A stretch of 33,381 nucleotides of DNA, taken from NCBI GenBank assembly GCA_000934665.2, contig JYFJ02004279.1, positions 1-33,381 of the forward strand, written 5' to 3'. The notes under the pieces were generated by a model, which saw only the letters and a list, made by a program, of their open reading frames with translations, was not told the origin of the DNA and did no database searches. Within the stretch, counting starts at the first letter, position 1; each line of letters begins with the position of its first letter. The position numbers and the translations under genes are program-made. This DNA is from Catajapyx aquilonaris (Eukaryota). This document shows, in pieces, positions 1 to 33,381 of the stretch.

Positions 1-619
1 ATGAGTTGTACTCAAAGTCTACGTGTTTCATTTGCCCACAAATATTTTTTCTGCAAAGAAAAAAATTCGCGAAAACTGCTAAAATGTCGTAAAACAGCGT
101 TTTTGCCAATTTTTTGCGCGGTTGCTAATTATACATTCGCAATTATTTTATATCGAAAATTCAGACCTAGGTAGGCAGTTGCTCCATTACAAATTTGGTT
201 TCTCTGTAACGAACAGGAAAATTGGTACAGGCGTCCAAAGTTGAGAAAAAATGAACTTGGAGAAATAGCAGATTTGGTACCCCTGCGGTTATGATTTTTT
301 TCAGGGCAAATAAAAAATGACACTGAAAAATAGCCAGTGTCATTCGTCATCATTTCGACAGTGGTACTTCGTGTAATTTTTCCGTAATAATCGGAGACCA
401 AGCCCTGACAACTTTTCTGGATCTGGCCTGATTTGAAATGGAACCACCCTTCTTCTTCGAAGGTATGCTGTAAATTGTGTCATGTATGTCTTATCAAGGT
501 TGAAGCATTTTTTGACAGAACAATTTCTACCCCTGTTCCTTAATATTTTAAAGACTTGGGCAACGTTTGTTGCCAGATCATGAGCGTACAAGGTGATAGA
601 ACGTGTCGCTTGCGGCTGG

Positions 620-835
620 CTCGGGCCAGTGAATATACGGTGTTTGCAAAAATGAGGCTACAAGTTGTAGTTGAAATCTGAAATAATACTGCAATACGTG
701 CAAATGAAAGTGATGTTTTCGATGTGATCATGACAAGGACAATTCTATGTTCTGTGCTCAATGCCCTACTAGTGTTGCTGGACAGTGTCGACAATCTCCG
801 CAAGCTCTGCCAACAACTAACAACAATTAATTCTT
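620..835 (-). mobile_element. ISL2EU/IS5-like transposase helix-turn-helix fragment
   Basis: LSTEHRIVLVMITSKTSLSFARIAVLFQISTTTCSLIF resembles the HTH_Tnp_4 pattern (LxxxxKxxLSFxxLAxLFxISxxTxSxIF). Confidence 0.55.
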
Positions 836-1094
836 GCCATCCCCGCCTGGTTGTCCATTCCCCTTTCTCTGGCTTCTTCTTGTTGTGCATATCGTCTCGG
901 TCTATCCTGAGTGTACCCTTGATCGTCTCTCGTCCCTGTGCACCTTGGTTGTGTGTACCCCTGTCACCTGTTTCTTTTTGTTGTGCATGTCGTCCCTGGG
1001 TTATCAGGTTGTTCCGTTGGCTGTCTCTTCTCTGTGCCCCTTGGTTGTATCGTTGGTCGTTTGTCCCATTCTTCTTTCTTGTTTCCGAAAACCC

Positions 1095-1650
1095 ATTGAC
1101 GGTGAATGCTTAGCGTGGCTAACCCATTCAACATCTTCAGCCATAGTGCTTCTTAGACATGTTTTAATTCGGCGAAGCGAGCTAAATGAACGCTTTATAG
1201 TGCTTGTTGTGCAGGGCTGTGAAAGCAATATCATAAGCGCTTTTCTAATGGTCGGGAAAAACAATTCGCTCTTTTTTTTAAACCTCAATGATGTCTGGCG
1301 CTTCCTGTACCCCATTCCACATTTTGAACCACAATTCCCTTTCTCCTTCGATGTCTTCCAAATTGTAAAAAGTTGCACAAGATGAAGTACTTTCATTCCA
1401 TTCTGCCAATGAAACATTTCTCATCTTACTCGGATGGAAATGTGTTAATCAAAATGCAGGCGATTTGTCTGCCGAAAATCTGACCCCTAAAGATATGATG
1501 GAATCCGAGTAAGGAATTATTAGAGACCTTCGCCAAAATTCGGGTGGATTTTCGACTGGAGGGTTGCTTCTATCCTTTTGTCGGCCAGCAACGCGATTGG
1601 CGGTTATATCAACATTCAAATTCCCTGCTACAAACAGTTTGAAACACTCA
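1095..1650 (-). mobile_element. hAT transposase C-terminal fragment including the dimerisation domain, frameshifted
   Basis: Manual minus-strand translation: RVAGRQKDRSNPPVENPPEFWRRSLIIPY...FFPTIRKALMILLSQPCTTSTIKRSFSSLRRIKTCLRSTM...LNGLATLSIHR. Confidence 0.85.
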
Positions 1651-2084
1651 AGGAGGAAAGGTCATTAAGATGTAGCTGCTTCATCGGAAGATTTTATAAT
1701 CACCAGACGGCCTTGCCTTTAAAATAGGTGCTGACGACATCACTTCAAAATGCAACCCCTCAATCCGCGCAGGATGCCGTCTTCGAAGGATAGGAAATTC
1801 ATAATCCACACAAGCTTCTTCTTCGGACATCACTACACCCTTTCCTCCTCCACCACCTCCTCCTACCGACACATGCATCTGTTGCTCAACCGTGTTTACA
1901 ATATCCGTGCCAACTCTATGAATCGGCAGATGACAAAATCTACATCCACCCTCGATGCACATATTATCACCCAGGAAAGGTCTCTTGTCAGTATTGAAGG
2001 CTATTAAGACTCGTTAAGATCAGAAGAATCTAGTGGAAACAAGTTCCTTTAAAAATGGCACCCTATTTCCAATTCGGGTCACTT

Positions 2085-2284
2085 ACCTTCTCAAAGGCGG
2101 CCAACTGCTGGGCCGCCATCTCCCCATACTGCCTCTGATAGTGTGGGGAGTCCTCCCATAGTCTTCCCAAAGCGTAATTGACTTCATTCACCGTGAAGCT
2201 AGGGTTAGCAGACTCAATCTGTTGTCTATGAGCATTGGCAAACAACGTAAATGCTGCCATTGGCCTGGATTGCTTCTTCTTCAT
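2085..2284 (-). pseudogene. HMG-box domain exon fragment
   Basis: SRPMAAFTLFANAHRQQIESANPSFTVNEVNYALGRLWED...QYGEMAAQ matches the HMG-box pattern RPMxAFxxF...NP...LGxxW. A GTAAGT donor follows at about 2085. Confidence 0.7.
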
Positions 2285-2712
2285 GGTCTGAGGAAGTTAT
2301 ATATGGTATTTAAATGATTGTGAGCTATGGGAATACAGCAATAAAGAAAATAGAGAAGACGTCCACCATCGTATAAAAAGCCAAACCTTTGCTCTGTATC
2401 ACAGGGTCAAATCTTAAACTTTTTGTCCACATGCAAAGTTTTCACTCTCTACACTTTCATCTGGAGTGCAAATTGCTTACTTGCAGTGCTTAATTTTTAA
2501 TTACTGGATTTAGCCTTTGCACTCCATGGCTCACTTTGGAGTGCAAATTAGACCATTTGCCGAATACTGTGACCCCTGGTATAAAGAACATTAGATGCAA
2601 AGGGATCTGAGGCAAGTCGATGAAAGGTTTCGCCCGACCACCATGCCTCCCTATTTCCTTCACTAATTGCACAATACAGGGTGGTAAACTGCCCTTTCCT
2701 CAAGGCATGAAA

Positions 2713-4318: not shown

Positions 4319-4981
4319 TTGGCGGTACCCAAGTAGAGATTGTGCGTGATATCAATGCTAGAAATCCGACAACATCAAAATACACAGTTAATTGGGTTAG
4401 GCAGATAAATATTGACCATATTTCGCTGACAATAATCTTCAGTTCTTCCACTACTGGCTCCATGAAGGAATTTAACGAGCTAGGCTCCTTACTCAGATAA
4501 GAAACCCCCCACTAGAATAATGTTTTTAAATAAAAATCTTTCTCGTCGTGGTAGATTCATTATGCTAATGAACATTATCCCCACCGAGTAAGCGTGCAGG
4601 TTTTTGAAAGGTAGGAACCAATCCACATTTAACATGAGTGCAAAATGGTTTCTTTCGCTAAGAAATGGTTCACCTTTGAATGACTGAAACTGCTTCCAGA
4701 TGCTGCCGTCATATATGTCAAACATATGGGTCCTCTTCAACATGCCTGTTGCGCCATTCTTCACACGTAGTCAGAAAACCTGGCGTTTTGCACAATATCG
4801 CCAAGAATTCAATAATTATCGTATATTGGGTAGCAGTATGTGTGTAACGGGTAAAAAGCTTTCTTCACATTTTTGCGGGAGGTTTCCTTGAACAATTTTG
4901 CTTTACATTCTTCCTTGTATTGTCTACCATCAATAAACGTCGAATTCCAGCAGAGTCGGGAGGGTTTTTCCCATGGAACAG
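4319..4981 (-). mobile_element. CACTA/EnSpm transposase (Transposase_21-like) fragment, copy 1
   Basis: FYPLHTYCY...EEWRNR..MFDIYDGSIWKQF...ALMLNVDWFLPFKN...SVGIMFISIMNLPRRERFLFKNIILVG. Near-identical to 14333-14988. Confidence 0.85.
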
Positions 4982-5065: not shown

Positions 5066-5802
5066 GGCGATGGCCTGAAGGGAACAAAAATTATTATTAA
5101 TATTCATAGGTATTTATTATTGTTAATAATAGTAATGCTATAATTAGGAACACCTGCTGTTCTCCTCATCATCTCCGCTGATTTTTAAAAAAATCTCAGA
5201 GCACAGGTCAAATGCTCGCAGATGGATTCCTTGCGGGAGCATGGTTTGGTCATGGGGAGAGGATGAAGGAGGGGGAGATTGTGAGGAAGGTTTACTTTGG
5301 TTGTGTATCCCAACAATGGTCCAGTCACCAACATATCAAGACCTCGGGAGGAGAACGATCAAGGGCCAACTCAGGTGGAACAGAGATATTGCAATTGCAA
5401 ATAATTTCGAAGGTTCATAAGATTCTACTGTAAATCTTACTTTCGGGGCCTCCCATAGTGACATAAATCACATGGCGCTTTCGAGTAGGGGAAACCCAAC
5501 AAGCCCTGCAGCCTGTGGGCCCCTGCAAAATCACAAAATGAAATTGCTGGTTGCTTTATGGGCAAAGAGAGTTCCTGTCGCATCTACAAAATTATTGGGC
5601 ACAATCACACAATCATATCATGCAATGCTTCAATATGGCATCAAGAGTAAGTAATAACATTATTACATGCAGTACTGCAAGACGTATTTAAGTTACATCA
5701 GAGCTGAAATTCTTCACTACAGCCAGCCATGAAGATTATGTATCAACGACTCATGCCTGTATATATGCATTCGTCCTGTCTCAGTAGCAAAGGTCACCTT
5801 AC

Positions 5803-6111
5803 CTGGCACTCTCTTCGTCGAAAATCGTTCTCAGCGACTTTTCTGGCTCAGTCTCGGCTCGCCTCTTACAAGAAGCGAGGAAAGCCCGCTTACTTGCCTC
5901 CGTTGGAACCGAATCGTGATTGTGGCCGGTTTGGCCCGCTGGCACGAAAGTGCCATCCAAAAGAAGGTGTGCCGCTCCTCCACAATCACGATTTATGCAC
6001 CTCAAGTAAGTTGTGCCATTCGTAAGGGACACCTTGTTCTTTCTGTAAAGGAACCCTTCAAAAACGTATTGGTGCGAACCACGTCGCAAACCTTCCTGTT
6101 CCATATCGAAG
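5803..6111 (-). mobile_element. FLYWCH zinc-finger exon, MULE-type transposase N-terminus
   Basis: YVFEGFLYRKNK...TYLRCINRDCGG...HNH...AFLASCKRRA...SLRTIFDEE, bounded by a TTTCAG acceptor (6112-6113) and a GTAAG donor (5802). Confidence 0.75.
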
Positions 6112-6204
6112 CTGAAAGAGAGGGAGCAGAAAATCAGATCAGTACGTGATAACCTGACACGGTGAAATAACGGTGAAAACCCGTTGCGTCATATGCATGC
6201 ATAT

Positions 6205-6606
6205 GACGCAAAGGCTATAGGCCCTTTTTCCTGCTCCAGTATGGCCACGATTCCTATGGGTGACGCATCGCTACTCACCGGCTCACTGGGGTCAAAATAG
6301 CTTAGGGTTGGTGCCTGGAGCACCCTTCCCTTCGCTGCCTCAAACACCTTCGTATGGGAGCCGGGAGGTGGTCCATTTCCACATCTCCTTTCTTCAAGAG
6401 CTGTAGAGCCTGCACCTCGTCTGCGAGATGTGGTATATACGTATCTCACCAGGTAGTTGATCATCCCCAGGAAGCACCGTAGAGACTCCGGAGTGTCCGG
6501 CGTGGCAAACTTTACTATGGCTTTCACCTTCGCTGGGTCTGGCGACATCCCTGTTGCATTGAAGACCTGAGCCAGCTGGAGTTTCTCCTTACGGAAGCGC
6601 AACCCA
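6205..6606 (-). mobile_element. Ty3/Gypsy pol fragment (RT thumb to RNase H) with internal deletions
   Basis: GMSPDPAKVKAI...LRCFLGMINY...FEAAK...APTLSYFDP...DASPIGIVAILEQ..PIAFAS. Confidence 0.9.
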
Positions 6607-7220
6607 TGGCTATTCTAGGCACCCGGGTTCTTCGAGCCCAGAACATTCGCAATCGTGGATATCCTAATACTGAAGCCATCATGCCAATGCCAAAGAAATG
6701 TTTGATTTCTTGTGCATGAGTGTTCATGGAAGAACCTTTGCTACTGTTTTTTACACCTCATATTGGTGTACATTGCCACTTCTTCAAAATACGCGTCGTC
6801 TCAGTAGCGCTGAAAGTATTCAACAGGCTTCTTGGGGGCATTCGGCATAGGACGTTGACCTCCTGATAGGCTGATTGGCACGGTTGGGTTGAAACTGTAA
6901 TAAAATAAAAAAAGTGTCAACAGAAATCTCAATTCTTCTATTATTCTCGCTTTTCTGTCAACTTACTCATTACCACGCCTCCATCGTCTTTTCTTCTGCA
7001 AAAGAGCAGTCACAGCTAGTGGTGTGTCATCTGAATCACTCCAGTCTGATGAATCATCCTGCTGGTCACGGTCTTGGCTATTGCCTACATCATCAGACTG
7101 ATCATGGGCTTCCAGGTCACTACTTTCTTCATCGCTTTATTCATCAATCTCCGAGTCATCGGGATTTAGTATGTCCCACAAATCAAGTTCGTCCCCACAG
7201 ACTTGATTCTATTCATCAGC
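6607..7220 (-). mobile_element. piggyBac transposase N-terminal fragment with retained intron (6895-6966)
   Basis: Acidic N-terminus (SDWSDSDDTPLA..RWRR) splices in frame via GTAAGT..TTACAG to PKKPVEYFQRY, followed by YTN and EIKHFFGIGMMASVLGYPRLRMFWARRTRVPRIA. Confidence 0.75.
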
Positions 7221-7319
7221 CTTAAGGCAGCACCGTCCTTCAGAAGCACTGGTACATACTGCATCGTGTGACCGTCCGTGATTCCACGTAACACACACGC
7301 CGCGTCGAACTGATGCCTG

Positions 7320-8434: not shown

Positions 8435-10615
8435 CTACCATTTCCCACGTATTTCAACCCTAGGGGCATGAGCAATAAATTGTTGCCGGGGTCGCGAAAT
8501 CCTGTCCCAATACTTTATTTTATACACCAGCTTAGTCATTTCTACTTTAAACAGGTCCCTCTGCTTCACAGTCATCTGCCTCATAGTTTCTGCAAAAGAG
8601 ATGCAGAAATGTTCGCAATCGTCCAGATTGGACAGTTGTCTCATGACATCGACTTGTGTGAGAATATCATCTTCTATGATCTGAGGGTTGAATCTGTTAG
8701 ACTCTGTTGAATTTGCGAGTCGTCCATTGCCGGGTTCAGTGTTCTGGCTTTAAGGATGTCTCCCTTCTTCATCATACCAGCTTTCACCATCTCTTTCGTC
8801 CACGAAGTAAAAGCTAATAGGACTTCCCTCTTTGTCCCCTACGGTGGACAAAACATTGCCAGTTGTGCTGCAGAGAAAATGTTTTAATTAGAGCTTGTGC
8901 AAGAAGCTCAGCACCAGTCTACACTTCCTTCCCTCCACTTTAGTGTCCCCTCATCATGTCATAGCAGGCCCACTTGGTGCGGTACACCTCATCTGTGCCT
9001 GAACCCGATGGCGCTGACATTGCCATCTTTATTTTCCCCCTGGAATACCCATCGCGCAGGGTGTTGAACCTGGCCTTCACATCAGCGACTAGATTTTAGA
9101 AAAATGAAACAGCGTGATTAGGAATACATGACACTTTCCCATTAGTAAAAGACCTGCATCTGTACTTGTATGTTATCAATAAGTTTATGGAATTTTCTTT
9201 TTGGTTACAATTCAGTAAATCAATGGTTATCTGATGATTATAACATTGAGATACCTAATGATCTTTGAAGATGAAATAATTATCTCTATGGAACTATGCA
9301 TATTATAATTCATTTTAGTATGAGTACTATGGAACGGGGTTTACTTTGTCCAAAAAATCTGCTATACGCATATATAAACATGCGGATATTAATCCACGAC
9401 TGTGACAATTTCTTAAAGGCCAGTGGAAAGAAATTTTTTCCATGCAGGGCAATTCTGCTGTAACTGACGCAACCCGTGGGCATGATTCACGATGTATTGA
9501 TCATATTCAATATGAGAAGCTGAATTATCTTAATCTAATTTATCTAACATTGTACAGAGGAATTGGTTTTTTCTGCTACCACACCATCACTTCTCTACTA
9601 CACTGTAAACTGCAAAACATAAAGAGCATCACTGGTGAGTCTCTCATGGACCATCAATTTAATGGTCTTCTAATGCTCCTGTGATGCTTTTTGTTGCTAA
9701 AAAGCATCACAAGAGCATTAGGAGAGCCTTAGAAGAGCATTAAAAATTGATGTTCCATGAGAGACTCACCAGTGATGCTCTTTTAATGTTTTGCGGTTTA
9801 CAGTGTACACATGTGTAAACCGGAGAGAGAGCACATGACTAAAAGCATGGCACATTATCAGAATCACTGTAGCATGTGTAACAAGGATCCCTTCCAGGAA
9901 TGATTTTGCTCTGATAATATTTAGTGCCAATTGCTCCTAAGATGAAAGTGACAGCAATAACTGGGATGCCCAATAACTGTTGAGCTCATAATTCCCCGTA
10001 AAATTAAGTCAAGGTAATGGGCAAAACTTGGCACAAAACTCACCCGGGAGTCCGACCTCACGGGCCACTTCAGCCCAAAGTACTTGTGTGATGTTCCTGT
10101 CGCGGTGGTCCTTCATCGTCTTATCCCAGATTGCCGCCCTGTCTTGCACCGCGATGATCAGGGCTTCCTTCGAGGCCACCGTACTCTTCCGCGCCTCTGC
10201 CTTCGCCTTCCTCTGACTCATTTTGTACAGTAAGTTCCCGACACCAGCAAGGCGGCAACTCCAACTCAGTGGACTCACACAGAAAGATGGCTGCTGCCTG
10301 ACCGGCACAGGTGACACGTGACAGGTCTCCCCGGCCTCCCCAACCCCCAGCTCCCACCCTCCCAGTCCCCCATTGGCCACACACGGTCACGTGGTCTCCA
10401 AGCAGTTATTCGCTTTGTAAAATAAGCGCCCAAAATTCGCTTCTATCTGTCTCTGGCAGGCGAGCGCGATTTTGTGTTTAGACGCGCGAGTAACCAAAAT
10501 TCGCTCGCGTCTTGCGGGAATTCGCCGATACGTGAATTGCTTTTGTCGACGCGAATTCGCGGAAGGCTGTTTTTCGCTCGCTTTTGACGCTTTTCGCGTA
10601 TATGTGAATCCAGCT
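8435..10615 (-). mobile_element. Harbinger remnant: one TIR plus a three-exon MADF-BESS accessory pseudogene
   Basis: Terminus TAA|AGCTGGATTCACATA at 10615. Exon 1 at 10221-10044 (LIIAVQDRAAIWDKTMKDHRDRNITQVLWAEVA) splices in frame to exon 2 from 9088 (VADVKARFNTLRDGYSR...SGSG...KWACYDMM). Exon 3 ends in BESS-like DDCEHFCISFAETMRQMTVKQRDLFKVEMTKLV. Stops and a frameshift are present. Confidence 0.75.
9601..9805. mobile_element. Palindromic MITE with CACTG...CAGTG ends and TA flanks (CACTA/EnSpm-like), in the MADF intron
   Basis: TA|CACTGTAAAC...GTTTACAGTG|TA, with arms complementary over most of the 205 bp. Confidence 0.85.
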
Positions 10616-10616
10616 T

Positions 10617-11190
10617 TATGCTGCTCAAGTGTTTAGCAATAGTTTCAGTGCTGCCATGGGAGTCTTGGCTAAGTACAATGTGTTGCCAGGTCCCCAAGCG
10701 ACAAGTGACTTCATTTTGCAGATGGACAAGTATTGTTTATTTGTTTTCATGGTACTTACAGCGATAAAAAAGAACTCCGGAGGCATGGCGAGATGGGGGT
10801 AAAAGTGCCCAGTTTCTTATGTCAATGTGCAATCAAATGAAGAAATAATGGAAGTTTAGGACTAAGGGCCGGTTTCACCGAGCTCAGTATATGATAAAAC
10901 CAGGGTATTTCTCAAAATCCCTATCTATTTGTATGGATTTTCCTAAAGAAACCTGGTTTTATCATATACCAAGCTCGGTGAAACCGGCCCTAAGTCACAC
11001 ATTCCTTGTGTTGGAGGGTTACGGCTGACCATTCAGGCAGTTATCATGCTTTGGGATGATCTAAGACCATGAAATGTCATTTCTATGTACAAGAAACTTG
11101 AACCAGGATTGCCTTAAAAACCTCTGCCAAAATTCGTGGCAGAGGAGGTTTGGAGAGTATCATTGCTCATTAGAGAAGGTCGCTGCTGCA
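10617..11190 (+). mobile_element. P-element/THAP9-like transposase, inverted C-terminal catalytic segment, interrupted by a MITE
   Basis: YAAQVFSNSFSAAM...ATSDFILQMDK...IPCVGGLRLTIQAVIMLWDDL...FLCTRNLNQDCLKNL..KIRGRGG read on the plus strand. Confidence 0.8.
10866..10990. mobile_element. Tourist-like (PIF/Harbinger) MITE, 125 bp, TAA TSD
   Basis: TAA|GGGCCGGTTTCACCGAGCT...AGCTCGGTGAAACCGGCCC|TAA. Confidence 0.9.
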
Positions 11191-11256: not shown

Positions 11257-11565
11257 TTTACAACAGGTCATATTTCTTCAGGTTATTTCGAATTGACTTG
11301 AGTAGGTGAGGAGGATCAAACATTAAAAAAAAACCTTTTGACCAGCAATGTATACATACGGTTTTTCATGGGTCACTCCCATCCTGGAAAACATGCACCT
11401 GTTACTAGGCCCCTGGTCACAGATTACCACTTCCACAATTATACCAATTTCAAATAGTTTCTCTATGCATTCTTCTACAATGCTCATTAACTCTAAACTT
11501 GTGGCGCCATCCTGTACGCCGAAACAGCATAATGGTTGTTACCATCTGCCACAAATCGGCCATGA
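11222..11565 (-). mobile_element. P-element/THAP9-like transposase, N-terminal RNase H segment
   Basis: ICGRW*QPL...CIEKLFEIGIIVEVVICDQGPSNR...EKPY...MFDPPHLLKSIRNNLKKYD...ISWKHI. Confidence 0.85.
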
Positions 11566-14332: not shown

Positions 14333-15047
14333 TTGGCGGTACCCAAGTAGAGAGTGTGCGTGATATCAATGACAGAAATCCGACATCAAAATACACTAAT
14401 TGGGTTAGGCAGATAAATATTGACCATATTTCGCTGACAATCTTCAGTTCTTCCACTACTGGCTCCATGAAGGAATTTAACGAGCTAGGCTCCTTACTCA
14501 GAGAAGGAATTACCCCCACCAGAATAATGTTTTTAAATAAAAATCGTTCTCGTCGTGGTAGATTCATTATGCTAATGAACATTATCCCCACCGAGTAATC
14601 GTGCAGGTTTTTGAAAGGTAGGAACCAATCCACATTTAACATGAGTGCAAAATTGTTTCTTTCGCTAAGAAATGGTTCACCTTTGAATGACTGAAACTGC
14701 TTCCAGATGCTGCCGTCATATATGTCAAACATATGGGTCCTCTTCAACATGCCTGTTGCGCCATTCTTCACACGTAGTCTGAAAACCTGGCCTTTTGCAC
14801 AATCCCTCCAAGAATTCAATGATTATTGAATATTGAGTAGCAATATGTGTGTAACGGGTAAAGAGATTCCTTCACATTTTTGCAGGAGATTTCCTTGAAC
14901 AATTTTGCTTTACATTCTTACTTGTATTGTCTACCATCAATAAACGTCGAATTCCAGCAGAGTCGGGAAGGTTTTTCCCATGGAACAGATAGAATCAGTC
15001 AGAGGGGTTATAAATTGCACAGTTGGGGTAGAGAACATATTTTGACT
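14333..15047 (-). mobile_element. CACTA/EnSpm transposase fragment, copy 2
   Basis: Same motifs as copy 1, plus ILVGVIPSLSKEPSSLNSFMEPVVEEL and an upstream KYVLYPNCAIYNPSD (degenerate KYVxCPxCxxxY). Confidence 0.85.
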
Positions 15048-15668: not shown

Positions 15669-15790
15669 TTACTGGCCGACCAGTTTTTTATACTTGTCCT
15701 TGCACTGTGGCCCAGTCTTCTTTTCGCCTTTCTCTGCCAGTGCTGCAGATATGGCTTCATAAATAGGGCGATTCATGTAATACCTGTTAC
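15669..15790 (-). mobile_element. Myb/SANT (trihelix) DNA-binding fragment, Harbinger accessory type
   Basis: NRPIYEAISAALAEKGEKKTGPQCKDKYKKL. Confidence 0.65.
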
Positions 15791-16108
15791 CTGTAGGACC
15801 ATAAAATCACCTAGAGGTACCATACCTGCAGAGCCCTGCAGCGGGAGACGTGGGTTGGTGCACTCCAGGGGCCTGCTGCACCCTGCACAGTACCGTGCTG
15901 GGGAGTCAGTCGCTGTGACAAACCCACAACTGGGTTATCGGTTGTGGAGTGCACATTCGGGAAACTCAAAGGACGATTTAGATGTCTACTTGGCGGAAAA
16001 GGATACAATTCGTCAGCAGTACATGACCGAGCAAAAGAAAAGCGAAGTACAGTATAAACCAAAAAGGAAATCGGTCACACACCCCACGGCCACGATAAAG
16101 AAAGAACA

Positions 16109-18131: not shown

Positions 18132-19350
18132 TCATTCACTATCAGCGTCATCTGCTGGAACATCATCACTCGAGAGTAATGCATTGTAGTATGGCATCCA
18201 GGTCAGGGAGCATATACTACATAAGAGGCGCAAACATTCGATTTTTTTCGTCTCTCTGTTTATGGCGTTGTCAAGGCTGGCGGCCATCTTGGAGTGTGTG
18301 GTATGTCAACGAGGTGTAAATTGGGTACAGGCAGGCCGTCAAGGTCCGCGGGGTCCGCCATCTTTGATGGTTTGGGCTGCCATGGCAATACACGGCAACA
18401 ACAATTTACTTACCCATTTTCCAATATCGAATTCAAATTCGCGCGTGTTATTGCCGTGTATTGCCATGGCTGCCAAAACCATCAAAGATGGCGGACCTTA
18501 TTTTTGCCTGTACCCTATTTATACCTCGTTGGCATCCCACACTGGTCAAGATGGCCGCCGGCCTTAGTAACGCCCTATAAACAGAGAGACGCTAACAACA
18601 ATGGCCTGACAGAAGTTTGCGCCTCTTATGTAGTATATGCTCCCTGTCCAGGTGGTGTAGCATTTCCAGATGCAGTATAGGACTGGGGTCGTTGGTAAAG
18701 TACGGGTTGCAAAAGTGGGTTGTTGATATTTTGAGGATGACTGGGCATATCAACTTGAGGAACATACTTCCGTGCCAAAGTCATGACATCAGCATACTTT
18801 TTGGCTGCAATAGGCAACTTTTCTGGATAAGCCAACGAGGGTAGTAAGTCATACGATTTCTTGATCTTTTTCTCCAGTTTAAATCTTCGGGGGTTTCCCA
18901 TGCAATGAGCTGTTGATACAAACACTTCATTTGGCTGCAAATGGCTGTACTCAAGCACCTTGTATTTGGAAATCGCAAACTTCTGTGGTCCATTTTTAAC
19001 AATCTTTTTGAAGGAATGTGAGAGAGCTTCTTTGTAGTTCTTGACGTATGACTGAGTTACCTGTTCCACCGCAAAGTTCTTTGAAGCCTTAGATACTAGA
19101 GAAAACCACTCAGTGGGTGAGTAAACCCTTTCCTTCCTGCGTTTGGCTTTTCCGATAGTACCAAATGCTCTGTCGCAAGGCATAGAATTATGGCCTCTCT
19201 CAGCAAAGTGATGTAGGATCTTATCTAATATTTTGTTCTTAACAAGAGTAAACAAATACTGCACCAATGTCATATTCTTGTTTTGAGCTGCGCAGTTATT
19301 GCTAAAGAGATGCAGCTCTTTTACTGATGACTGGACGTATTTTGAAAAAC
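18132..19350 (-). mobile_element. Sola1 transposase C-terminal half, interrupted at 18198-18743
   Basis: ELHLFSNNCAAQNKN...HHFAERGHNSMPCDRAFGTI...VYSPTEW...LPIAAKKYADVMTL. KYVPQVDMP rejoins YYNALLSSDDVPADDADSE* once the insert is removed. Confidence 0.8.
18204..18646. mobile_element. Fold-back MITE, 443 bp, 7-bp TSD (P/Galileo-superfamily-like)
   Basis: TCCAGGT|CAGGGAGCATATACTACATAAGAGGCGCAAAC...GTTTGCGCCTCTTATGTAGTATATGCTCCCTG|TCCAGGT, with arms complementary almost to the centre. Confidence 0.9.
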
Positions 19351-20704
19351 GTAAACATGCAAGCATTCTGGTTAAATTTATCTGCAATGTAGCCGAAATG
19401 TAGTGCGCCGCAATATATCTATTTTCGTCGTAGAACCATATTTTATTGAAATTTGTTTTAGAAATATTCCGGCTATTTATATCATTCCTGACCTCAGTGT
19501 CCTTCATGGTTTGAGTCAGGCTGACAATTTTCCTGAACCCTTTTCAATACAAAGGGGGGGGGGGGGACNAATTACCTCTTCTAAATGTCGTAGGGTGAAG
19601 TCTCCTTTTTTCCTGTACCACTGCCTGGATCACTCACTCTCTTGCTGACTGACTTGACATTAGAAGAGTCCAGCGTTTATATACTGATCAATGAGCTGAC
19701 CTCGGCTAGCTATTGTTTTCTTTATTAATAGCTGAGGGCTCTTACATATGTTTTGAGTTGTTACGGATGTCCCAATATTTGATAAGGGATGTTTACTGGT
19801 GCTGAGTCAGGCTGACATATAGTGTGCTGAGTCAGCGATGGCAACAATAACACGTTCAATGACAAATTTGGTGCCAAACGATGGCCCAGCTGACTTAAAA
19901 ACTGGACTGCTTCGGGAGGAGCTGTGAATAAGTGTGCAAAAAAATTATTAGCTCCCACAAAATGTCATCGCACATCCTGGAATTGTCCCAAAATATATCA
20001 TGCAAATTACCGTGTTTGAAATTCTTCCTGCATCCTGGCAATCATGTCATCCTTCTCCGCAATAATCCTCCTCAGCTCATTAACTTCTGAAGACACATCA
20101 GGTGAGTCCCTTGGGTTGGGGAGGCCACAAATTGCTCTTCCCCTAGCTCTTCCATTAACAATTCCTGTGTGGAGTGTTTTTTTTGCACTTGTGCACTTCT
20201 TTTGCTGCTCCTTCCTTGAAGTCAGGTCGTGAATGGAGGTGGCCACTGTTTTGTGGACCCAGCCGCGAATACACTTGACACAACACATCATCAGGCAGAT
20301 TTAACTGCCGAAACCACAACAAATAACAAGCCCCAAAGGGGAAATCCGGGTAACCCATGGCTTTAAAGGCCCTGGCGACACTTGGGTGTTCCATCACATA
20401 TACACGGGCTATGGGCTATACATCCAAACTAATCACTGAGACCTTTCTGATGACATTCCGAGTTGGAAATTTCCTGTGTAATTTTGGTGGAAGAGACTCC
20501 CGAGCCACAAAGATATGTTATTGCAAAATACATTACCTCGGATACGGCAAATGGTGCAGATAAGGATGGAATGCCTCTTCTATGAGACTTGCAATCATTT
20601 TAATCTTTCCCTCTCAGCCCCGCGCTGCTTGCCAACAAATTATGAACCGAAAAGCTCACCTTAATATTCAAGAGATCCTGTCCATTCCTCCTTGGAAAGG
20701 ACAC

Positions 20705-21829: not shown

Positions 21830-22590
21830 TCAAATTGTGTAAATCAGGACATGTGATGTTACGCATGTGGTGTCCTTCTTCGCCGTTGCGTTGATTCGTA
21901 AATCATCGTACAATTCCCATTGGCCGTCAAAGCGACGGCAATACGCAGTGTAGTGTCCAACGCCGCCATCAGTTGGTGTGGCTGGTGCTACAAAAGCCGC
22001 CCGCAAGGAGTGTGTCATGTTCTTAAATTTTACTTCCTTCGGAATGTCTCTCAGGACGACTTTATAATGCCTTTCACTCTTGCTGTTATCATAGCCTGTC
22101 TCTCCTGATGCATAGTCAATCATTACGTGCCCCTCACTGAATGTAATGGAACCTGTAGTCTGCCCATTGCACATACGACCATTCTTGTGTGCGCTGCGGC
22201 ACACTGAGATGTTCCCTTCCAGAATTGATGCATCGCTGAAGGCCTGTTGAAGGCATCGTACCCCGCCTTTTTCAATCATGGCACAATTTATTTGTAAAAC
22301 TGCTAAGTCAGTTTGACGTGCCGGACTACAGGACTTAGAACATTGCCTGATTTCTGTTGCACTGGCGCATTTGGGGAAAAGCTTCAGCGCCATTGAAGAA
22401 GCAACCAGTTCACAGTGAACAACAATTACATTCGACACATTATTGCTTTCTCCCGGTAGCACCTCCTTCAAAGCTTTCGCCCGCAGGTAGTACAAGAGTG
22501 CTTCGTCACACCCTTAGAACACATATGGTGAACTACCTGCAGCGTTATGCATAGACTTGGATATTTCTCCGCATAGGTTTTGTATGAGTC
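21830..22590 (-). mobile_element. USP/C19-peptidase-like C-terminal domain fragment, resembling MULE/NOF-FB-type element proteins
   Basis: His-box-like HSLRAAFV...GVGHYTAYCRRFDGQWELYDDL...VLIY. The Cys box is absent. The NOF link is from recall. Confidence 0.55.
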
Positions 22591-25189: not shown

Positions 25190-25715
25190 AAGTGAAGCTG
25201 CCACTTAACACTTGGGCAGCCCTCTTAACTTTCATTTTACTCAAACTGTCCGTATAAATGTGCTTTCTTGTTAACTTCGGAGCGGAAGGAAACCGCTGCA
25301 TTTTGTCCCTCTCATACATTTGTACAATAGGCTCCCAGCTTGCCACCATACCTTGAAATCGAAAATCATACTTCATGAGGTTGTATCGCAGGCTTTTCAG
25401 GAGGTGGGGGACATCATAAATACAATACAGCATTTCTCCCTTGTGGTTAAAGTAATGGCTGGTCTCTGACACCTTCAGGGACCTAGGCAAAGCACACATG
25501 TTGGGACCCTGGTCTGAGACCACGCCTACCGGTCGTAACCCACACTCTTGCAACAATTCGAGGCATTTTCGCAACAACACAAGACGGACACTGTTTGGGG
25601 CCGAGGCAGGAGCCAAAAAATACCCCTAAGGTTGCTTCCACTGTCCAGCCACTCCCCGTGCCATTACAACTAATACTGATTTGGCCACTTCTGGTTTTTC
25701 CAACCCTAACCCACC
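25190..25715 (-). mobile_element. P-element/THAP9-like transposase fragment, second family
   Basis: VMARGVAGQWKQP*GYF...VVSDQGPN...YDVPHLLKSLRYNL...ASWEPI...APKLTRKHI...KMKVKRAAQVLS. Confidence 0.9.
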
Positions 25716-26882: not shown

Positions 26883-27189
26883 TGGATTTGGTAAAGAGAT
26901 AGAGGGCAAGAAGGAGGAGAAGAAGATGTCAGTGAGACTGCTGTATCTGTGACAAGGCAACCAACCAGCCAAAGTTGCGTTGGTCGAGATTGATGACTGC
27001 AAGCATTCATCATGCTCGAAGCAATAATATACATAGGAAACCTGCTCCTCGGGAACCTGCGTAACGCATACTAACTAATTTATTATTTGGAAAAGGGGTC
27101 ATCATCTCCAGCGCAGCAAATGAGGGTATGCCCCCTTTTCAAAATGACCGATTCAATTACGTATGCAGGTATATATTATAGGCCAGGGA

Positions 27190-27690
27190 TTTGTTAATTT
27201 CCAACAGCAATGATATATGGCTGCATGATGCCATCTGCCTTGTTTTTGGCCACATTTCCACATCTTCACCCAACTGGAAGAAAATAAAACAACCTCAAAT
27301 TTCTGCACTGTCATTTAAACTGTCACAGTAAAAGTTTCTTACCTGCACAAATTTAATTTGTGATGTCTGCTTTTCCGGCCTTCTCTGCCTTCTTCACAGT
27401 CCCCACAGCAATGATGTATGGCTGCAACAGTTGATCCGACTTGTTTTGTGCAACGACTTCTACATCAGATCCCAGCTGGGAAGAAAAATTAATTGTAAAA
27501 CAAGTGATGTATGGTATAAATTGGCTGCAGATAAATGACTTTCCTTACCGTGGCAAACTTGATCAGGGATGACTGCCTACTGTCTGCTGATGCCTTGCTG
27601 CTTCCTTTGCGCCGGATTGACACTGGGACAAGTTGCAAAAGGAGCAATACACTTTTCAGGCACTCTGTTAATGATAGTTATGAGTTACCA
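27190..27690 (-). mobile_element. EnSpm-type accessory ORF exons, two paralogous modules in tandem, introns retained
   Basis: VLLLLQLVP..RRKG...LIKFAT|GTAAG..CAG|LGSDVEVVAQNKSDQLLQPYIIAVG, then KFVQ|GTAAG..CAG|LGEDVE..VAKNKADGIMQPYIIAVG. Confidence 0.55.
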
Positions 27691-27869
27691 AAAGTGTCCT
27701 TCAGACTATATGACATGGTACTATCACTATATTTTTATACTCACTGTCCTGCACTTCATTGTAGGTGGAGAGTAAATCTGGGCATCCATATCCATATCCA
27801 TTCCTCCTTTATGACACACTTGCCGCTTTCGACTTATGACCACCTTCACAGGTCAAAGGCTCCACTGTG

Positions 27870-28115
27870 CGCCGCCTAACCACTAGCTGCATACCACTGC
27901 CATAAATTGTAGTGAGGAAGTTGACGTCCCGCTTGTCCTTCCACCTTCCAGCTAGCATGTTCCCAGCTCTGAGAAAATGGGCTTCCCCAACCTCCACTTC
28001 TCCCAGCATGGTGTCAGGAAAGCCCCTGGAGTTTGGGCGGATCGTGCCACAGGCAAAGGTGTCCACATCCATAAGGTCCTGCAGCAACCTGGGTGTTGTG
28101 TATGGTACGCCAAGT
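27870..28115 (-). mobile_element. piggyBac transposase core fragment
   Basis: YTTPRLLQDL...ACGTIRPNSRGFP...GE...WKDKRDVNFLTT. Confidence 0.85.
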
Positions 28116-28479
28116 AGTAGTCTGTTATAGTTCTCTTGAGACTGGCTCAGCAGCAGCGGCGGCGGCACCTGCAGGGGCAAGAACAGCAGCCGGAGGGGCA
28201 ACTACAGCAGCGGGGACAGGTACAACAGCAGCATTCATCTGGGTCTCTAGATAAGATGATGCAAACTAACTGGCTTCCCCGAGGAAATCAATGTGGCTTG
28301 CCATCTGACCATTGGTAAACCTCTCCTGTAGACGACGGATTTGTAAGTCCTGCCGATTCCAAGTGCGGGACCTGGGCCTCCGCGGCCGAATACCGTCTCT
28401 GGCACGTTGATAGTCCAGGGACTGCGCCTCCTCGGTGGTCCGAAGTCGCCCTGGAAATTAATGCATCTCTCAGAGGTGC

Positions 28480-28845
28480 CCATGATCGATTGATCAACAG
28501 GTCCTCCATTGTTGCCGGTGCAGCCTGCACCAATTCCCTCAGTGATGTAAATGTACACCCCCGGGAATATGTTTTTAGTTCAGGATGAAACCTCTGCATG
28601 ATGAACTGTACTCGTTCGAGCTGGTCAGCCTCCAGTTTGACCTGCTCAAAATAGCCCTGAATGGCCGTAATGAAATGGTAAGCGGCTCAGCACTAGCCTG
28701 AGTGCGCTTCTCCATCTCTTCCCGTTCCCGGAGTTGGAATGCGTATCCAACACATTCGAACTTTTTACCCTGAATGCAGACACAAAAGTGTCCCAATCAT
28801 TAAACCGCCATGCAGTTCATACCAGGCCAATGCCTGACCGTCAAG
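28480..28845 (-). mobile_element. Gypsy gag (Arc-like capsid) fragment, frameshifted
   Basis: GQALAWYE...WDTFVSAF...EEMEKRTQASAEPL..FITAIQGYF...ERVQFIMQRFHPELK...FTSLREL. Confidence 0.7.
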
Positions 28846-28924
28846 AGCGGTCGGCATGACCTCCTGGAGCACTTCCTTTTTTGTGCACCTCAGGATCCGA
28901 CAATATCTGTCGACCTCCTGTAAG

Positions 28925-29050
28925 AATGGTACTTAGAGGCTGGTAGTATTTTAATCCAAAGACTGCGTGCATGGCTAAGAAGGCAGCTACCCCCATCACT
29001 ACATTGCTTTCTGAATGTGAATTGTTGTTACAAAATGAATACAACAGCGG
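28925..29050 (-). mobile_element. Possible EnSpm-type accessory ORF C-terminal micro-fragment
   Basis: GVAAFLAMHAVFGLKYYQPLSTIL resembles FxxxxVFxLxYP. Short match. Confidence 0.4.
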
Positions 29051-29073
29051 TAGGCCAGTACAGAAGAGGCAAA

Positions 29074-29540
29074 TCATTCTAAGCGGAAATTGAGTCGGCG
29101 AGGCTTCTTTGCCAAAAGCTCTAGAATGTCCTCCGATCTGACGCAGACGTCTCGATGGATGTTCAAAAGTGCCAATCCATTCATGCGGCCTTGATTTGTT
29201 GTGCTTCGCAGGTAGGTTTTCAATCTTCGCAAGGTTGAAAATGATCTGTCAAAAACATTCAAACTCTTAAAGATATGAATATTTGCTTGAGCCATTTGTA
29301 TTTAAAATATTCGTCACTTGCCTTTCGCTGGAACTGGTTGACACCGGGAGAGTGGCAAGGTATTTGAGCAGCCGTCGAACAGTTGGGTACAAATCGGCGT
29401 TACACATCATTACAGCATCCATGGCATTTTTTTGGAGGCTGTTCCATCGTCGCCACCCGTCGATACCACATTTCCAATTCCCCAAGTGCAGTCAGATGGT
29501 CGCACTTAACGTCCTCTGCATATCTGTCCACGAGTTCCTT
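29074..29540 (-). mobile_element. hAT transposase C-terminus (second family) with retained intron at about 29248-29320
   Basis: GELEMWY...LYPTVRRLLKYLATLPVSTSSSER|intron|SFSTLRRLKTYLRSTTNQGRMNGLALLNIHRD...KKPRRLNF. Confidence 0.85.
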
Positions 29541-29876
29541 CATCTGCTTTTTCTGTGAATTGTTCGGCGTGGGAGAAGCTCGTGTTTTGATGGCTGACCA
29601 AATCTGCCTCTTCACTGGCATCAACTGCACCTTTGCCATGAGAGGTAGCGAAAAAATTCCACCTAACATTTCTGGCAGGCTCTTCTGAAGATAACATACA
29701 ACACCTTGAACATGAACTTGTTCTTGAATTGAGATGCTGCCCCGTCACTGAATACATCAATTGTATCAAATCTCGCATGTCCACTTTTTATCATATCGTC
29801 AAGGATCTCGGACAGGCAAGCAGAAACGGCAAACTTATCGTGTTGTAGGGCGTCAGAATTGATGACGTATGATTTT

Positions 29877-30220
29877 TTTTTTTTTTAATGTACCCCGTTG
29901 TGGGCCTAAGCCCTATAGGGGAGTGGGACACCACCATTTCTTTTTGTTCGATTTTCTATATTTTCCAACTCCGGTGCAAGGACGAAAGGACATGGGGTAA
30001 GGATAGGGACTTTTTGGGGAGGGAACATAGGTGCAGGTGCAATGTCTACAAATGGGTCATGTGCTGTCCCCCAGGAGGGTAGGTTGCCAGACACCTCCTT
30101 GGTGCAGGTCAGAGACCCTCCCGACGCAGGTGAAAGGAAAGTTCCCCAGGCGGGGATCGAACCTGGGGCCTTTCACACAGCAAGCCGTGACGTTACCATC
30201 ACGGCCACCACACCTCCCCT
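29877..30220 (-). mobile_element. tRNA-derived SINE, full length, poly(A) tail, 15-bp TSD
   Basis: TSD ATGACGTATGATTTT at 29862-29876 and 30221-30235. A-box TGGCCGTGATGG (30196-30207) and B-box GGTTCGATCCC (30153-30163). T-run to 29886. Removing the insert restores Sola2 TKSYVINSD. Confidence 0.9.
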
Positions 30221-30584
30221 ATGACGTATGATTTTGTACCCTGCTTGCCTGTCCACAAGACGGCTGTGAATAGGGTAAATTGCTTCTTGTGCCTCATAGG
30301 AATCTACCTGCAGCACTGCAGTATTCGATGAAATTCCTTGAATGTCAAGTTTTGCTGCCGCTTGATGAATCCATGTTTCAGAAAGGAAGGAACATCAGAC
30401 TGAAGTTCATCAATGACCTCTGATACCAAGGCCGTTTTTGCAATCTTCTCCACTTGTCCATGAACCGTAGCCCACGTGAACCATTGTACCTACAGGGCAT
30501 AACATCGTATGAAACACAGACTGCATGAGCCCCAAAAGTGGCCGAATTTACACTCTACCAAAATTGACTCATCATGAATGATAT

Positions 30585-32099
30585 TTTTTTAAAAAAAAAT
30601 TTTAACCCCTTGATAGTGTGACCGCAAGGGTAGGAAACACGGGATCTCACTGGACTAGATTTATCGCTTTCAAGACTCAACGTACAGAGGATAAGGATGG
30701 GATTTGAAATGGGGAGAGGAACGGTATGTGGACGACCAGTCGCCAGCTTGGGGCGCTGACGACAGGCCTCGACAGCAGTGGAAAAGAAGTATTCATCAGA
30801 AAAGGGCATACAGTGCATGATGGGTATGACGCTAGGTTGGAACAGTATGGCCGTAGGGTATGATGGGTAAAGTACTATGCAGTAGATGATGAACACAGAG
30901 ATAACAAATACGGAAAGCAAACCTGTCCTTGACTACAAAAGAAAATCGATGATACTACAGTTAGATGAGGTATGTAGCAAAAGTGTAAGGCGGGAGAATA
31001 CTAAAATTTCTCAGGTCACAATAGCCTTGAAGGCTTTTCGGGGGACATTCCCCCCAGCATCAAATTTACATACATATAAATTACTTACACTCAAAATAAA
31101 CAGCAAAAAAAGAAAGGTTATTCACACAAATCCAGAATCTTTAGCAGACCACTGAAAAAGAGAAAAAGGGCATATGCTTTGTCCTTGGTTAAATGCGCAA
31201 AGAGCCAATGAAGCCTGTCCGGTGGAACTTTGGAAAATTCCTGTAAGTACCTCTGACTTAGTTTCCGCGTCTGCCTGCACTCCATTAGGACGTGATGCAA
31301 AGAAAAAGTCTACTCCAGGTTGCACAATTGACAATAATCTTCCGTTTTAAATACAATTTTTTCGCCCTTAAACCAAATGCACTTACTGTTAGACATATTT
31401 CTGAGGTTGCAAATTAACCTAGTGACTGGTAGTGGGAGATTCCAGTTTAAGTAAGGCGTTTTATCCTCTACGCTCCTTATTTCCAAATAGTGTGCATATT
31501 TAACCGTCGCCGACAGCCTACTTATTAGGTCCTCCGAGCGGAGCACCGGGTCTTGGCCGTCCCAGCACGTGCGCCCGCTGGAACTCGATGTTTTCCGGGT
31601 GATCATGTAGGTTATGTTGTCCAATAAAATGGCGCAACTGCTCCACGACCTGCTTCCATGTATCGTTTGGCTTACTTGTTTGGATGCCAAAGAAGATCAA
31701 GTTGTTGCGGCGCTCGCGATTCTCCATGTCATCTATCTTGGCCATCAGCTCGGATTGTTCCATCTGCATCTCTTGTATTCGCCCGTTTGCTTCAGACAGC
31801 TGCGTCTCAAGCCCCCCTTGGCCTTCTCTTAATGCTTCCAGGATTGCTGTCCGCTTGGTATCCATAACATGGACAGCATGGTCCAGCCTCTTTGCAAGGC
31901 TGTCTGCTAGGTCCATCTTTAGCGCATCCAAAAGCGCATTGACTTCCTCCTTTGTGGCCATTTTACGGGAAGGCAAACGTGCCCCGTACTACAACCACCA
32001 GGTCGAAGTAGGCACAAAACGAGGGGACGATAAGGATTGCAAGCCAACCTCGGAGCCACTCGACCTGCCTTCTCCACTGCTGGGTAGGAACTGGGAAGT
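30585..32099 (-). mobile_element. Internally deleted LINE (5'UTR, ORF1 N-terminal part fused to ORF2 C-terminus, 3'UTR), 17-bp TSD
   Basis: TSD CTCATCATGAATGATAT at 30568-30584 and 32100-32116. ORF1 coiled coil plus MENRERRNNLIFFGI...FQRAHVLG. ORF2 end CQLCNLE*..LHHVLMEC. A-rich tail. Confidence 0.85.
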
Positions 32100-33381
32100 C
32101 TCATCATGAATGATATAATCGCCATGTTAGAGAATGTTAGAAGAAAACTTTGAAACTCACCTGCAGTTGCAAATCGTCATCGTCCAATTTTTTGATGATC
32201 CCGTCATGGAGGAAGCCCAGGAGAGAGCAAGTTGGGCACTCACCTAACATGCAGACTGGACTCTCGCTGTCGCATACTATGCTGTCAACCAGTTCTGTTC
32301 ATGTCGGTGGGAATATCTTGGGAAACTCGGAGTGGAGACACTGCAGCACCAACCGCAAGTTTTCATGATGTTTACACAAGCACACAGTAACAGGCATATC
32401 TGAACTTAGGCAAACATGAGGTGGACGTAGCTGGCAAAACTTTGACAAGCCAAGTATGACGTCAGGTTGCTCCTTCTTGAAGCAGTCTCGAAGAGACGTC
32501 TGCAGGTGTCTCTTTTGGAGCTTCTGCTTTTGTCCATGTTTGTCTTTGACAATGACAAAATCACGAATGCCCGGGGCCTGTCTGGATATTTCGTCACTAT
32601 CATAGTAATTCCTTACGATAGCCTCATCATCATTGGGAAGCACGTCTACTTGCTTTTTAGGTGGTGGCTTCGTGCTGACATTGTCCTTCGCCGCCAACGC
32701 CTTGATGACTGCAATCCTTTTATCCTGATCTGCAGGCAGCGCTCTCTCTGCCTTCTTTACTGCCCTCCTAAAAGCCTGGCGGCAGCTGAACGGAAAGTGT
32801 GAACTGGCGGTCACACCCTGGACAGTCGGAGGACTTGGTGGGATGGTGTCCTTTTCACGCCTTTTCTGCTTAAAACGACGCTGACGTGCCCTATTGTCAC
32901 TTCTTGTCATCTCTCGACAAGATTAGGCACTATACGGAAAGGCATACTTGCCAATGGTGCCTTTTCCCTTCTTCTTGAGTTCCTCTTCCTGTGTGCTTCT
33001 TTAGCCTTGTAGGCTTCATCATTCTTCTTTCGCAATCGAAACATATGCTGACGTTGTTGGTTGGTTTTTGAGGGAGCTTTCATGTTTCATCTGAATCCGA
33101 GTCCTAATTTTTAATTGAAATCGTCTTAACATCATATTAATATACTCTAATCCTAGCTAAGAAATGCTGTAATATTATCAAGAGCTAATAACTGAGAGCA
33201 TGTGACAAGTCCTTTGCCGTGACTGAACCTACATTCGAGTAAAACCAGCTCCGACAAGGCGGAACTAATATGTCCAGCTGTAGGTAAGGTTGCTCCTCCC
33301 ATAGAGGGTGACAGGAGGGTTCACGCACCTGCACTTGATCCATGGCCGGGCGAAGGAGGTGGGGGTGAGGCATGCGGGGGG

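Follow-up and report, generated by a model that had tools for sequence, protein, structure and literature searches.

A one-way array of transposon fragments with the layout of a unistrand piRNA cluster

The window, that is, the whole stretch of 33,381 nucleotides analyzed here, carries short pieces of transposons and of DNA-binding domains. Both strands were treated alike by searching Pfam-A with all stop-to-stop open reading frames (ORFs) of at least 40 aa, 249 on the plus and 253 on the minus strand. The features described below lie on the minus strand unless stated otherwise. A Harbinger/PIF-type transposase fragment (543..1109; HTH_Tnp_4, E = 5.5e-5, profile 2-44 of 53, below the curated cut-off) is followed by a hAT transposase C-terminal dimerisation fragment (1007..1420; Dimer_Tnp_hAT, E = 3.2e-7, profile 20-67 of 84, above the cut-off) and by an HMG-box ORF (2066..2296; HMG_box, E = 2e-10), which may be host-gene-like or a transposon accessory. 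Copy A of an internal fragment of an EnSpm/CMC-type transposase was found at 4319..4981 (Transposase_21, E = 6.3e-4). Between 5802 and 6757, pieces of unrelated families adjoin directly within about 1 kb: a FLYWCH zinc-finger fragment (5802..6188; E = 1.4e-4, slightly under the cut-off), an LTR-retrotransposon pol fragment of the RT-RNase H region (6192..6614; RT_RNaseH_2, E = 2.7e-7, profile 5-63 of 100) and an N-terminal fragment of a piggyBac transposase (6527..6757; DDE_Tnp_1_7, E = 1.5e-5, profile 29-67 of 349).

A MADF-BESS unit extends over three frames at 8438..10386 according to Pfam, with MADF positions 1-47 at 10012-10386 (E = 6.1e-6), MADF positions 43-82 at 8943-9095 (E = 3e-3) and the BESS part at 8438-8749 (E = 7.3e-7); roughly 0.9 kb of sequence containing a palindrome (9599-9807) interrupts the unit. 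The sole candidate plus-sense piece of the window is a weak P-element-like fragment (10608..10799, plus strand; TNP-like GBD, E = 0.0033, below the cut-off), which has a short motif in common with the minus-sense P-like copy (E = 0.022). A P-element/THAP9-type fragment comprising part of the RNase H N-terminal region is located at 11326..11538 (TNP-like_RNaseH_N, E = 3.1e-8, profile 85-137 of 137). Two palindromes (10860-10996 and 11194-11256) lie between these oppositely oriented pieces, and the plus-sense one is possibly a local inversion adjoining 11326-11538.

Copy B of the EnSpm/CMC-type fragment (14333..14988; Transposase_21, E = 1.1e-8) is followed by a Myb/SANT-like DNA-binding fragment (15672..15806; Myb_DNA-bind_4, E = 5e-5, below the cut-off). 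An imperfect palindrome of 455 bp at 18198..18652 (inverted match in self-blastn, 74% identity; also recovered by a repeat search) is readable on both strands and carries in its arms what we take to be a Tc1-like motif. The longest ORF of the window, with 305 aa, encodes a fragment of a DUF7869-type transposon protein (18629..19543; DUF7869, E = 3.5e-10) and is similar to aa 452-513 of an unnamed 704-aa protein, P0001. A ubiquitin-hydrolase-like ORF of 227 aa at 21833..22513 is weakly supported (Pfam UCH, E = 0.01); its Atlas recognition was 2536, with UCH clusters at 0.90-0.93, and a word-indexed protein search gave no match for it. A second, independent P-element/THAP9-type fragment at 25191..25625 contains the RNase H N end and the GTP-binding insertion (TNP-like_GBD, E = 1.6e-8; TNP-like_RNaseH_N, E = 3.3e-4). 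Further on lie a second piggyBac fragment, from the catalytic core (27812..28201; DDE_Tnp_1_7, E = 1.5e-8, profile 204-283 of 349), and a second hAT dimerisation fragment, which Pfam detects in two frames as adjacent ORFs (29077..29491; E = 1.5e-3 for profile 26-55 and 3.4e-3 for profile 52-83).

An element related to P0001 occupies 29617..32802 (E = 1.6e-28). Four colinear minus-strand matches were obtained by tblastn, covering aa 90-285 (32802-32227), aa 314-371 (30489-30331), aa 424-479 (29875-29699) and aa 490-506 (29667-29617). The element is colinear on either side of about 1.7 kb of other sequence that interrupts it, and within this insert lies a 156-aa ORF on the minus strand that may be L1-ORF1-like. 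The window holds at least one co-oriented nested interruption. Additional minus-strand ORFs are, on our assumption, pieces of a non-LTR reverse transcriptase, L1-ORF1, Gag, a pogo HTH and a tyrosine recombinase; these identities found no confirmation in Pfam at E ≤ 2 or in PDB searches.

The strand polarity of the remnants was evident from the Pfam tally. A family was matched at E ≤ 0.01 by 19 of the 253 minus-strand ORFs and at E ≤ 1e-3 by 15, and 11 exceeded the curated cut-off. On the plus strand, three of 249 ORFs had a match at E ≤ 0.01 (Pet127, 0.0062; TNP-like_GBD, 0.0033; ORF20A, 0.0053), while none reached E ≤ 1e-3 or the curated cut-off. Since chance alone would give some 2.5 such ORFs on each strand at E ≤ 0.01, the three plus-strand matches are at noise level. 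The two longest plus-strand ORFs had no relative among 1.84 billion protein representatives and, with an Atlas recognition of 990, no usable match there. When adjacent ORFs of one unit were joined (the two MADF parts with BESS, and the two hAT ORFs) and the tblastn-mapped P0001-like element was added, about 16 minus-sense units stood against one weak plus-sense piece, the P-element-like one, and one palindrome readable both ways. The two-sided binomial test gave p = 6e-5 for 15:0 and about 3e-4 for 16:1. The polarised pieces span 543 to 32802, reaching both ends of the window, so that any borders of the array fall outside it. The polarity across these 33 kb is confirmed as real.

A preliminary description of this DNA had counted 40 of 41 pieces as minus-sense, with p of about 4e-11. 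The near-total polarity was reproduced, at roughly 16:1 by Pfam and tblastn, but the counts were not, and the significance is much weaker (about 3e-4 to 6e-5), although still clear. Likewise, its density of more than one piece per kb shrank to about 0.5 tool-supported pieces per kb, covering about one third of the window with some two thirds lacking tool-supported annotation, and its approximately 18 unrelated lineages were reduced to seven clear transposon lineages plus four types of DNA-binding domain. Its statement that no intact gene is present held, as the longest ORF has 305 aa, the domain matches are partial and there is no long open gene. Nor did the search bring up comparable numbers of plus-strand transposon fragments, the ORFs at E ≤ 1e-3 being 15 minus versus 0 plus.

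The at least seven unrelated lineages are Harbinger, hAT, EnSpm-type, piggyBac, P-like, LTR pol and the DUF7869/P0001 type. Their pieces are short internal fragments, mainly of cut-and-paste DNA transposons (the first five of these), and each covers just part of its domain or protein. LTR-type content amounts to one of about 16 tool-supported units, and no RVT_1, rve or env match was found by Pfam among the 502 ORFs of both strands. Four families (piggyBac, P-like, hAT and EnSpm-type) are present twice, co-oriented and kilobases apart. Neither the piggyBac nor the P-like pair can be the two halves of one element, since the order of the piggyBac pieces is wrong for this and the profile spans of the P-like pieces overlap. 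EnSpm-type copies A and B are 94% identical over 665 bp in direct orientation and have identical break points in different surroundings. Copy B has 41 longer relatives with up to 59% identity, and tblastn of these full-length relatives showed that the copies cover only about aa 136-310 of their 776-950 aa, on the minus strand only. Apart from this pair, self-comparison of the window revealed almost no internal repeats and no sizeable direct repeat; therefore, the polarity does not stem from one duplicated unit.

This layout is that of a unistrand piRNA cluster, in that dense remnants show the strand bias characteristic of such loci (15 minus versus 0 plus ORFs at E ≤ 1e-3), and the piRNA-cluster reading is plausible. 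The likeliest reading, towards which we lean, is that the window belongs to a flamenco-type, unistrand cluster of piRNAs in an arthropod-like genome. The locus would then be a graveyard of short transposon fragments kept almost solely in one orientation, transcribed into a long plus-strand precursor antisense to the minus-sense fragments. This precursor would be processed into piRNAs by which PIWI proteins are directed to matching active elements, and the orientation bias would reflect selection that favours antisense output and disfavours insertions in sense. The one-way array is well supported as a sequence pattern, and the piRNA function is a candidate one. The co-oriented HMG-box, MADF-BESS, FLYWCH and UCH-like pieces may be host-gene remnants, whose orientation is not obviously explained if selection favours piRNAs antisense to transposons.

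As described for Drosophila, flamenco-like loci were found from transposon strand bias alone, and piRNA production was confined to one strand in both of the candidate species for which small-RNA data were publicly available (PMC10643416). The array resembles flamenco and the flamenco-like clusters (PMC10643416; FlaHMM, PMC11400887) in its dense remnants, in their nearly uniform orientation throughout the 33 kb and in having no long open gene. Strand bias, the sequence property by which the array stands out, is also the criterion by which those loci were found. The content and the strand bias of the Drosophila clusters are, however, driven by Gypsy elements only (PMC10643416), whereas the window is made up mostly of cut-and-paste DNA transposons, with about 1/16 of its units LTR-type. 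In the narrow Drosophila sense, which entails dominance of Gypsy/ERV-type LTR elements, the window does not qualify, its sole LTR-type piece being the RT_RNaseH_2 match at 6192-6614. Promoter, transcript and piRNAs are known for Drosophila flamenco, while the present array is known from its sequence. A single unidirectional flamenco-like cluster has been reported from Aedes aegypti (PMC7161354), with a similar one-direction layout outside Drosophila, and by that account the kind is not confined to flies. The Aedes cluster, which is known through its small RNAs and its transcription, is described as rich in endogenous viral elements, whereas no viral domain was found in the window. The term 'uni-strand' also appears in papers on Trichoplusia (PMC5844692) and Rhodnius (PMC11614815).

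Antisense bias is well established for intronic transposons, and the window could be a long intron of an ordinary gene on the plus strand, or lie in some other long unit of transcription, in which sense insertions bearing splice and poly(A) signals are purged by selection and the antisense remnants have no piRNA role. No exon-like Pfam match on either strand contradicts this explanation, which we nevertheless consider unlikely. The biases reported for introns are moderate ones, chiefly of retroelements, and are far exceeded by the tally of 15:0 or 16:1 here, in which fragments of DNA transposons prevail; under a 65:35 bias, the probability of 15:0 is about 0.002. Moreover, the plus strand, that of the proposed precursor, shows no shortage of poly(A) signals, with 25 AATAAA/ATTAAA motifs on the plus and 33 on the minus strand (27 ± 5 and 29 ± 6 in simulations); this counts against the piRNA-cluster reading as well. 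Oriented nesting, duplications within the locus or an insertion bias of the region, for example with replication direction, might also produce such an array as a structural outcome without selection or function. The duplicated EnSpm-type fragment and the nesting of one element in another are consistent with this. We regard it as distinctly doubtful, as the 665-bp pair is the only sizeable direct repeat and the orientation is common to at least seven unrelated lineages with different insertion chemistries.

That HMG, MADF-BESS, FLYWCH and Myb-like domains share the strand of the transposase pieces would also fit a row of host genes on the minus strand, arranged in tandem, assembled from domains of transposon origin and now decayed. 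However, repeat search and self-blastn revealed no recurring promoter or leader cassette, ORFs reach at most 305 aa, matches are as partial as 39 of 349 piggyBac positions, and unrelated families adjoin within about 1 kb at 5802-6757, making such an origin improbable. Very improbable, in our judgment, is a directed acquisition process, loosely comparable to the uptake of spacers by CRISPR arrays, in which short internal transposon pieces are copied into the locus always in one direction; the array would then not have arisen passively through selection acting on random insertions. Room for it is left by the short internal cut-and-paste fragments, which had no recognisable element ends in limited checks, by the direct junctions at 5802-6757, and by the 665-bp internal fragment present twice with exactly equal break points in different surroundings. 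Least probable of all is that a fragment-capturing element, of Helitron or Pack-type, collected these pieces in one orientation as its cargo. The fragments are indeed short, internal and co-oriented, and one is repeated with identical ends, but Pfam detected no Rep/helicase or other capturing-element domain among the 502 ORFs, no terminal structures were noticed in the searches made for other features, and a span of 33 kb is far above the sizes known for such elements.

If small-RNA data confirm the unistrand-cluster reading, the window would represent such a cluster in a non-model arthropod, with a polarity that extends to cut-and-paste DNA transposons. The polarity there would not be one of Gypsy-type retroviruses, and one-strand archives would appear tuned to the mobilome of each host. 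What is understood of the piRNA pathway today would not be altered.

The polarity of the window is further supported by strand differences in ORF sizes and base composition. ORFs of at least 100 aa number 35 on the minus versus 22 on the plus strand, and in 10 of 11 3-kb bins the minus strand has more residues in ORFs of at least 80 aa. The plus strand contains more T than A and more C than G, and in half-overlapping windows the AT skew was negative in 27 of 32 and the GC skew in 28 of 32.

Stop-to-stop open reading frames (ORFs) of at least 40 aa were taken alike from both strands (249 plus, 253 minus) and all were compared with Pfam-A at E ≤ 0.01. Matches were obtained for 19 of the 253 minus-strand ORFs, 15 of them at E ≤ 1e-3 and 11 above the curated cut-off. 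Three of the 249 plus-strand ORFs matched a family (TNP-like_GBD, E = 0.0033; ORF20A, E = 0.0053; Pet127, E = 0.0062), while none did so at E ≤ 1e-3 or past the curated cut-off. Since about 2.5 matches per strand are expected by chance at E ≤ 0.01, the plus-strand yield only reaches the level of noise. After merging of ORFs that belong together, about 16 minus-sense units stood against one weak plus-sense unit; the tool-supported content comprises seven transposon lineages and four types of DNA-binding domain, at a density of about 0.5 units per kb and with a coverage of roughly one third of the window. The strand polarity of the transposon pieces is confirmed in substance, with weaker statistics than those of the preliminary description, which had placed 40 of 41 pieces from about 18 lineages, over the full 33,381 bases, in sense orientation on the minus strand (p = 4e-11). 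The polarity holds when the same rule is applied to both strands, but the count of 41 pieces does not, the tools support fewer than half of the lineages, and the two-sided binomial test on units gives 6e-5 for 15:0 and about 3e-4 for 16:1. That description had also asked for a strand tally by unbiased annotation, and in the present one plus-sense pieces are not comparable in number (0 plus-strand vs. 15 minus-strand ORFs at E ≤ 1e-3).

As far as it can be read from sequence, the layout of the window matches that of a unistrand piRNA cluster, and we regard such a cluster as the most likely reading, with a slightly better than even chance of being right; by analogy with known unistrand clusters, the plus strand would be the precursor. 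Unistrand loci in Drosophila have been found from transposon strand bias alone, and in the two candidate species for which public small-RNA data exist, piRNAs arose from a single strand (PMC10643416); PMC11400887 describes a predictor based on transposon strand bias. A one-direction cluster is reported for Aedes (PMC7161354), and "uni-strand" appears as a term in work on Trichoplusia (PMC5844692) and Rhodnius (PMC11614815). Flamenco-type clusters of Drosophila are described in PMC10643416 as drawing their content and strand bias from Gypsy elements, whereas the window holds a single LTR-type unit and a majority of cut-and-paste DNA transposons. Pfam detected no domain of the reverse transcriptase (RT) core, integrase or envelope type in any of the 502 ORFs. 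If the cluster reading is true, the DNA-transposon-rich content would be the main point of interest, the kind of locus being already known.

The transposon pieces recognized by Pfam on the minus strand are a Harbinger HTH_Tnp_4 domain (543-1109), hAT dimerisation domains (1007-1420 and 29077-29491), EnSpm-type Transposase_21 in the ORFs 4492-4770 and 14271-14822, RT_RNaseH_2 (6192-6614), piggyBac DDE domains (6527-6757 and 27812-28201), and P-element-like RNase H and GTP-binding parts (11326-11538 and 25191-25625). The same strand carries an HMG box (2066-2296), FLYWCH (5802-6188), BESS and MADF (8438-10386), Myb_DNA-bind_4 (15672-15806), DUF7869 (18629-19543) and a weak coiled-coil match, "MAD" (31521-31988). 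Within 5802-6757, a piggyBac N-terminus, an LTR pol RNase H and the FLYWCH domain, from three unrelated families, succeed one another nearly end to end over about 1 kb. The DUF7869 ORF is the longest of the window, and a single N, which may mark a small assembly gap, lies at 19569 just past its upstream end. In a protein search, the 207-aa minus-strand ORF 32302-32922 matched P0001, an unnamed protein of 704 aa, with E = 1.6e-28. P0001 matched no Pfam family and resembles the DUF7869 ORF along one stretch. When P0001 was compared with the window by tblastn, four colinear matches were obtained on the minus strand only, from 32802 down to 29617; its residues 285 and 314 are separated by about 1.7 kb, so that a single element is split by other sequence.

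A sensitive self-comparison revealed only one pair of sizeable direct repeats, the EnSpm-type pieces at 4319-4981 and 14333-14988 (94% identity), apart from some short repeats of tandem or palindromic type. As the window is almost without internal repeats, the polarity does not stem from one unit that was multiplied. Four families are present twice (piggyBac, P-like, hAT and EnSpm-type), with both members of each pair pointing the same way. The piggyBac pieces do not form one element, because their order is wrong; the P-like pieces overlap on their profile, as do the hAT pieces, and the EnSpm-type pieces are separated by 10 kb. The EnSpm-type ORF matched 41 longer proteins carrying PF02992 (776-950 residues) with an identity of up to 59%, and when these were mapped back, both copies spanned only about residues 136-310, again on the minus strand only. 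In the 665-bp alignment the copies share two identical break points, their flanks are unrelated and terminal inverted repeats are absent. The repeated piece may belong to a short repeat family, or its second copy may stem from a small duplication or from a copying process.

The HMG box, MADF-BESS, FLYWCH and ubiquitin-hydrolase-like pieces may be host-gene remnants, and selection for antisense piRNAs offers no obvious explanation for their shared orientation. The MADF-BESS frame (8438-10386) has a start codon and is broken into three frames, with about 0.9 kb, including a 209-bp palindrome (9599-9807), between the MADF halves; the stretch may be a decayed host gene, an intron-bearing gene or a transposon accessory gene. 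The minus-strand ORF 21833-22513 (227 aa) has a His-box region of the ubiquitin-hydrolase type at its end (Pfam UCH, E = 0.01). It reached an Atlas recognition value of 2536 with ubiquitin-hydrolase-like (UCH) clusters and had no relatives in a word-indexed search of longer proteins only; it may be of either host-gene or transposon-cargo origin. Two other readings were rejected: host genes with transposon modules in a decayed tandem array, as there is neither a repeated cassette nor a long open gene in the window, and the cargo of a Helitron-like capturing element, for which no Rep/helicase was found among the 502 ORFs. The window may belong to an ordinary long intron from which sense insertions were removed by selection, but the bias seems too strong for this and the element classes involved are the wrong ones.

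The longest plus-strand ORF (15651-16271, 207 aa) had no relatives at E ≤ 1e-3 in an exhaustive HMMER search of 1.84 billion representative proteins, and the second longest (25487-26059, 191 aa), with an Atlas recognition value of 990, gave no usable match. The single plus-strand match to a transposon family, P-element-like, lies at 10608-10799, has a short motif in common with the minus-sense P-like copy and sits about 0.5 kb from the minus-sense P-like piece at 11326-11538. This plus-sense match may represent a genuinely inverted piece, and the two neighbouring pieces together suggest a local inversion inside one element. Palindromes at 10860-10996 and 11194-11256 lie between them; with those at 9599-9807 and 18198-18652, they make up four imperfect, foldback or MITE-like palindromes of 63 to 455 bp. 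The 455-bp palindrome (18198-18652) is readable in both directions in the self-comparison, and both of its arms seemingly contain a transposase-like motif, which we take to be Tc1-like.

Further minus-strand ORFs were likened, on our own assumption, to non-LTR RT, L1-ORF1, Gag, pogo, Harbinger N-terminus and tyrosine-recombinase pieces. The minus-strand ORFs 31521-31988, 13446-13793 and 7212-7511 and the plus-strand ORF 18190-18564, which we presume to be L1-ORF1-, pogo-, non-LTR-RT- and Tc1-like, respectively, gave no relevant match in PDB sequence searches. A relaxed Pfam search (E ≤ 2) of the 47 ORFs of at least 100 aa without a clear family (22 plus and 25 minus, one of the latter already with the weak "MAD" match) yielded only weak leads on the minus strand (UCH, 0.01; Ty3_capsid, 0.063; Ig, about 0.05) and only weak, unrelated matches on the plus strand. 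Six 1100-aa pieces of one minus-strand frame (15082-33381), read through with stops as X, matched no Pfam family at E ≤ 1e-3 in what is a less sensitive search than the ORF scan.

Softer signs, namely ORF numbers, ORF residues and base skew, agree with the minus-sense polarity: there are 35 minus-strand vs. 22 plus-strand ORFs of at least 100 aa, residues in ORFs of at least 80 aa are more numerous on the minus strand in 10 of 11 3-kb bins, and the plus strand has more T than A and more C than G. The plus strand, which would be the precursor, shows no depletion of poly(A) signals over the whole window. The Rfam, tRNA and tandem-repeat scans of the window detected neither an RNA gene nor a SINE-type feature to orient by, and the Rfam and tRNA scans no promoter landmark within it. 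Two tandem arrays are present, one of four units of 55-74 bp sharing a core of about 25 conserved bases (16872-17107) and one of 2.7 units of 41 bp (17324-17436).
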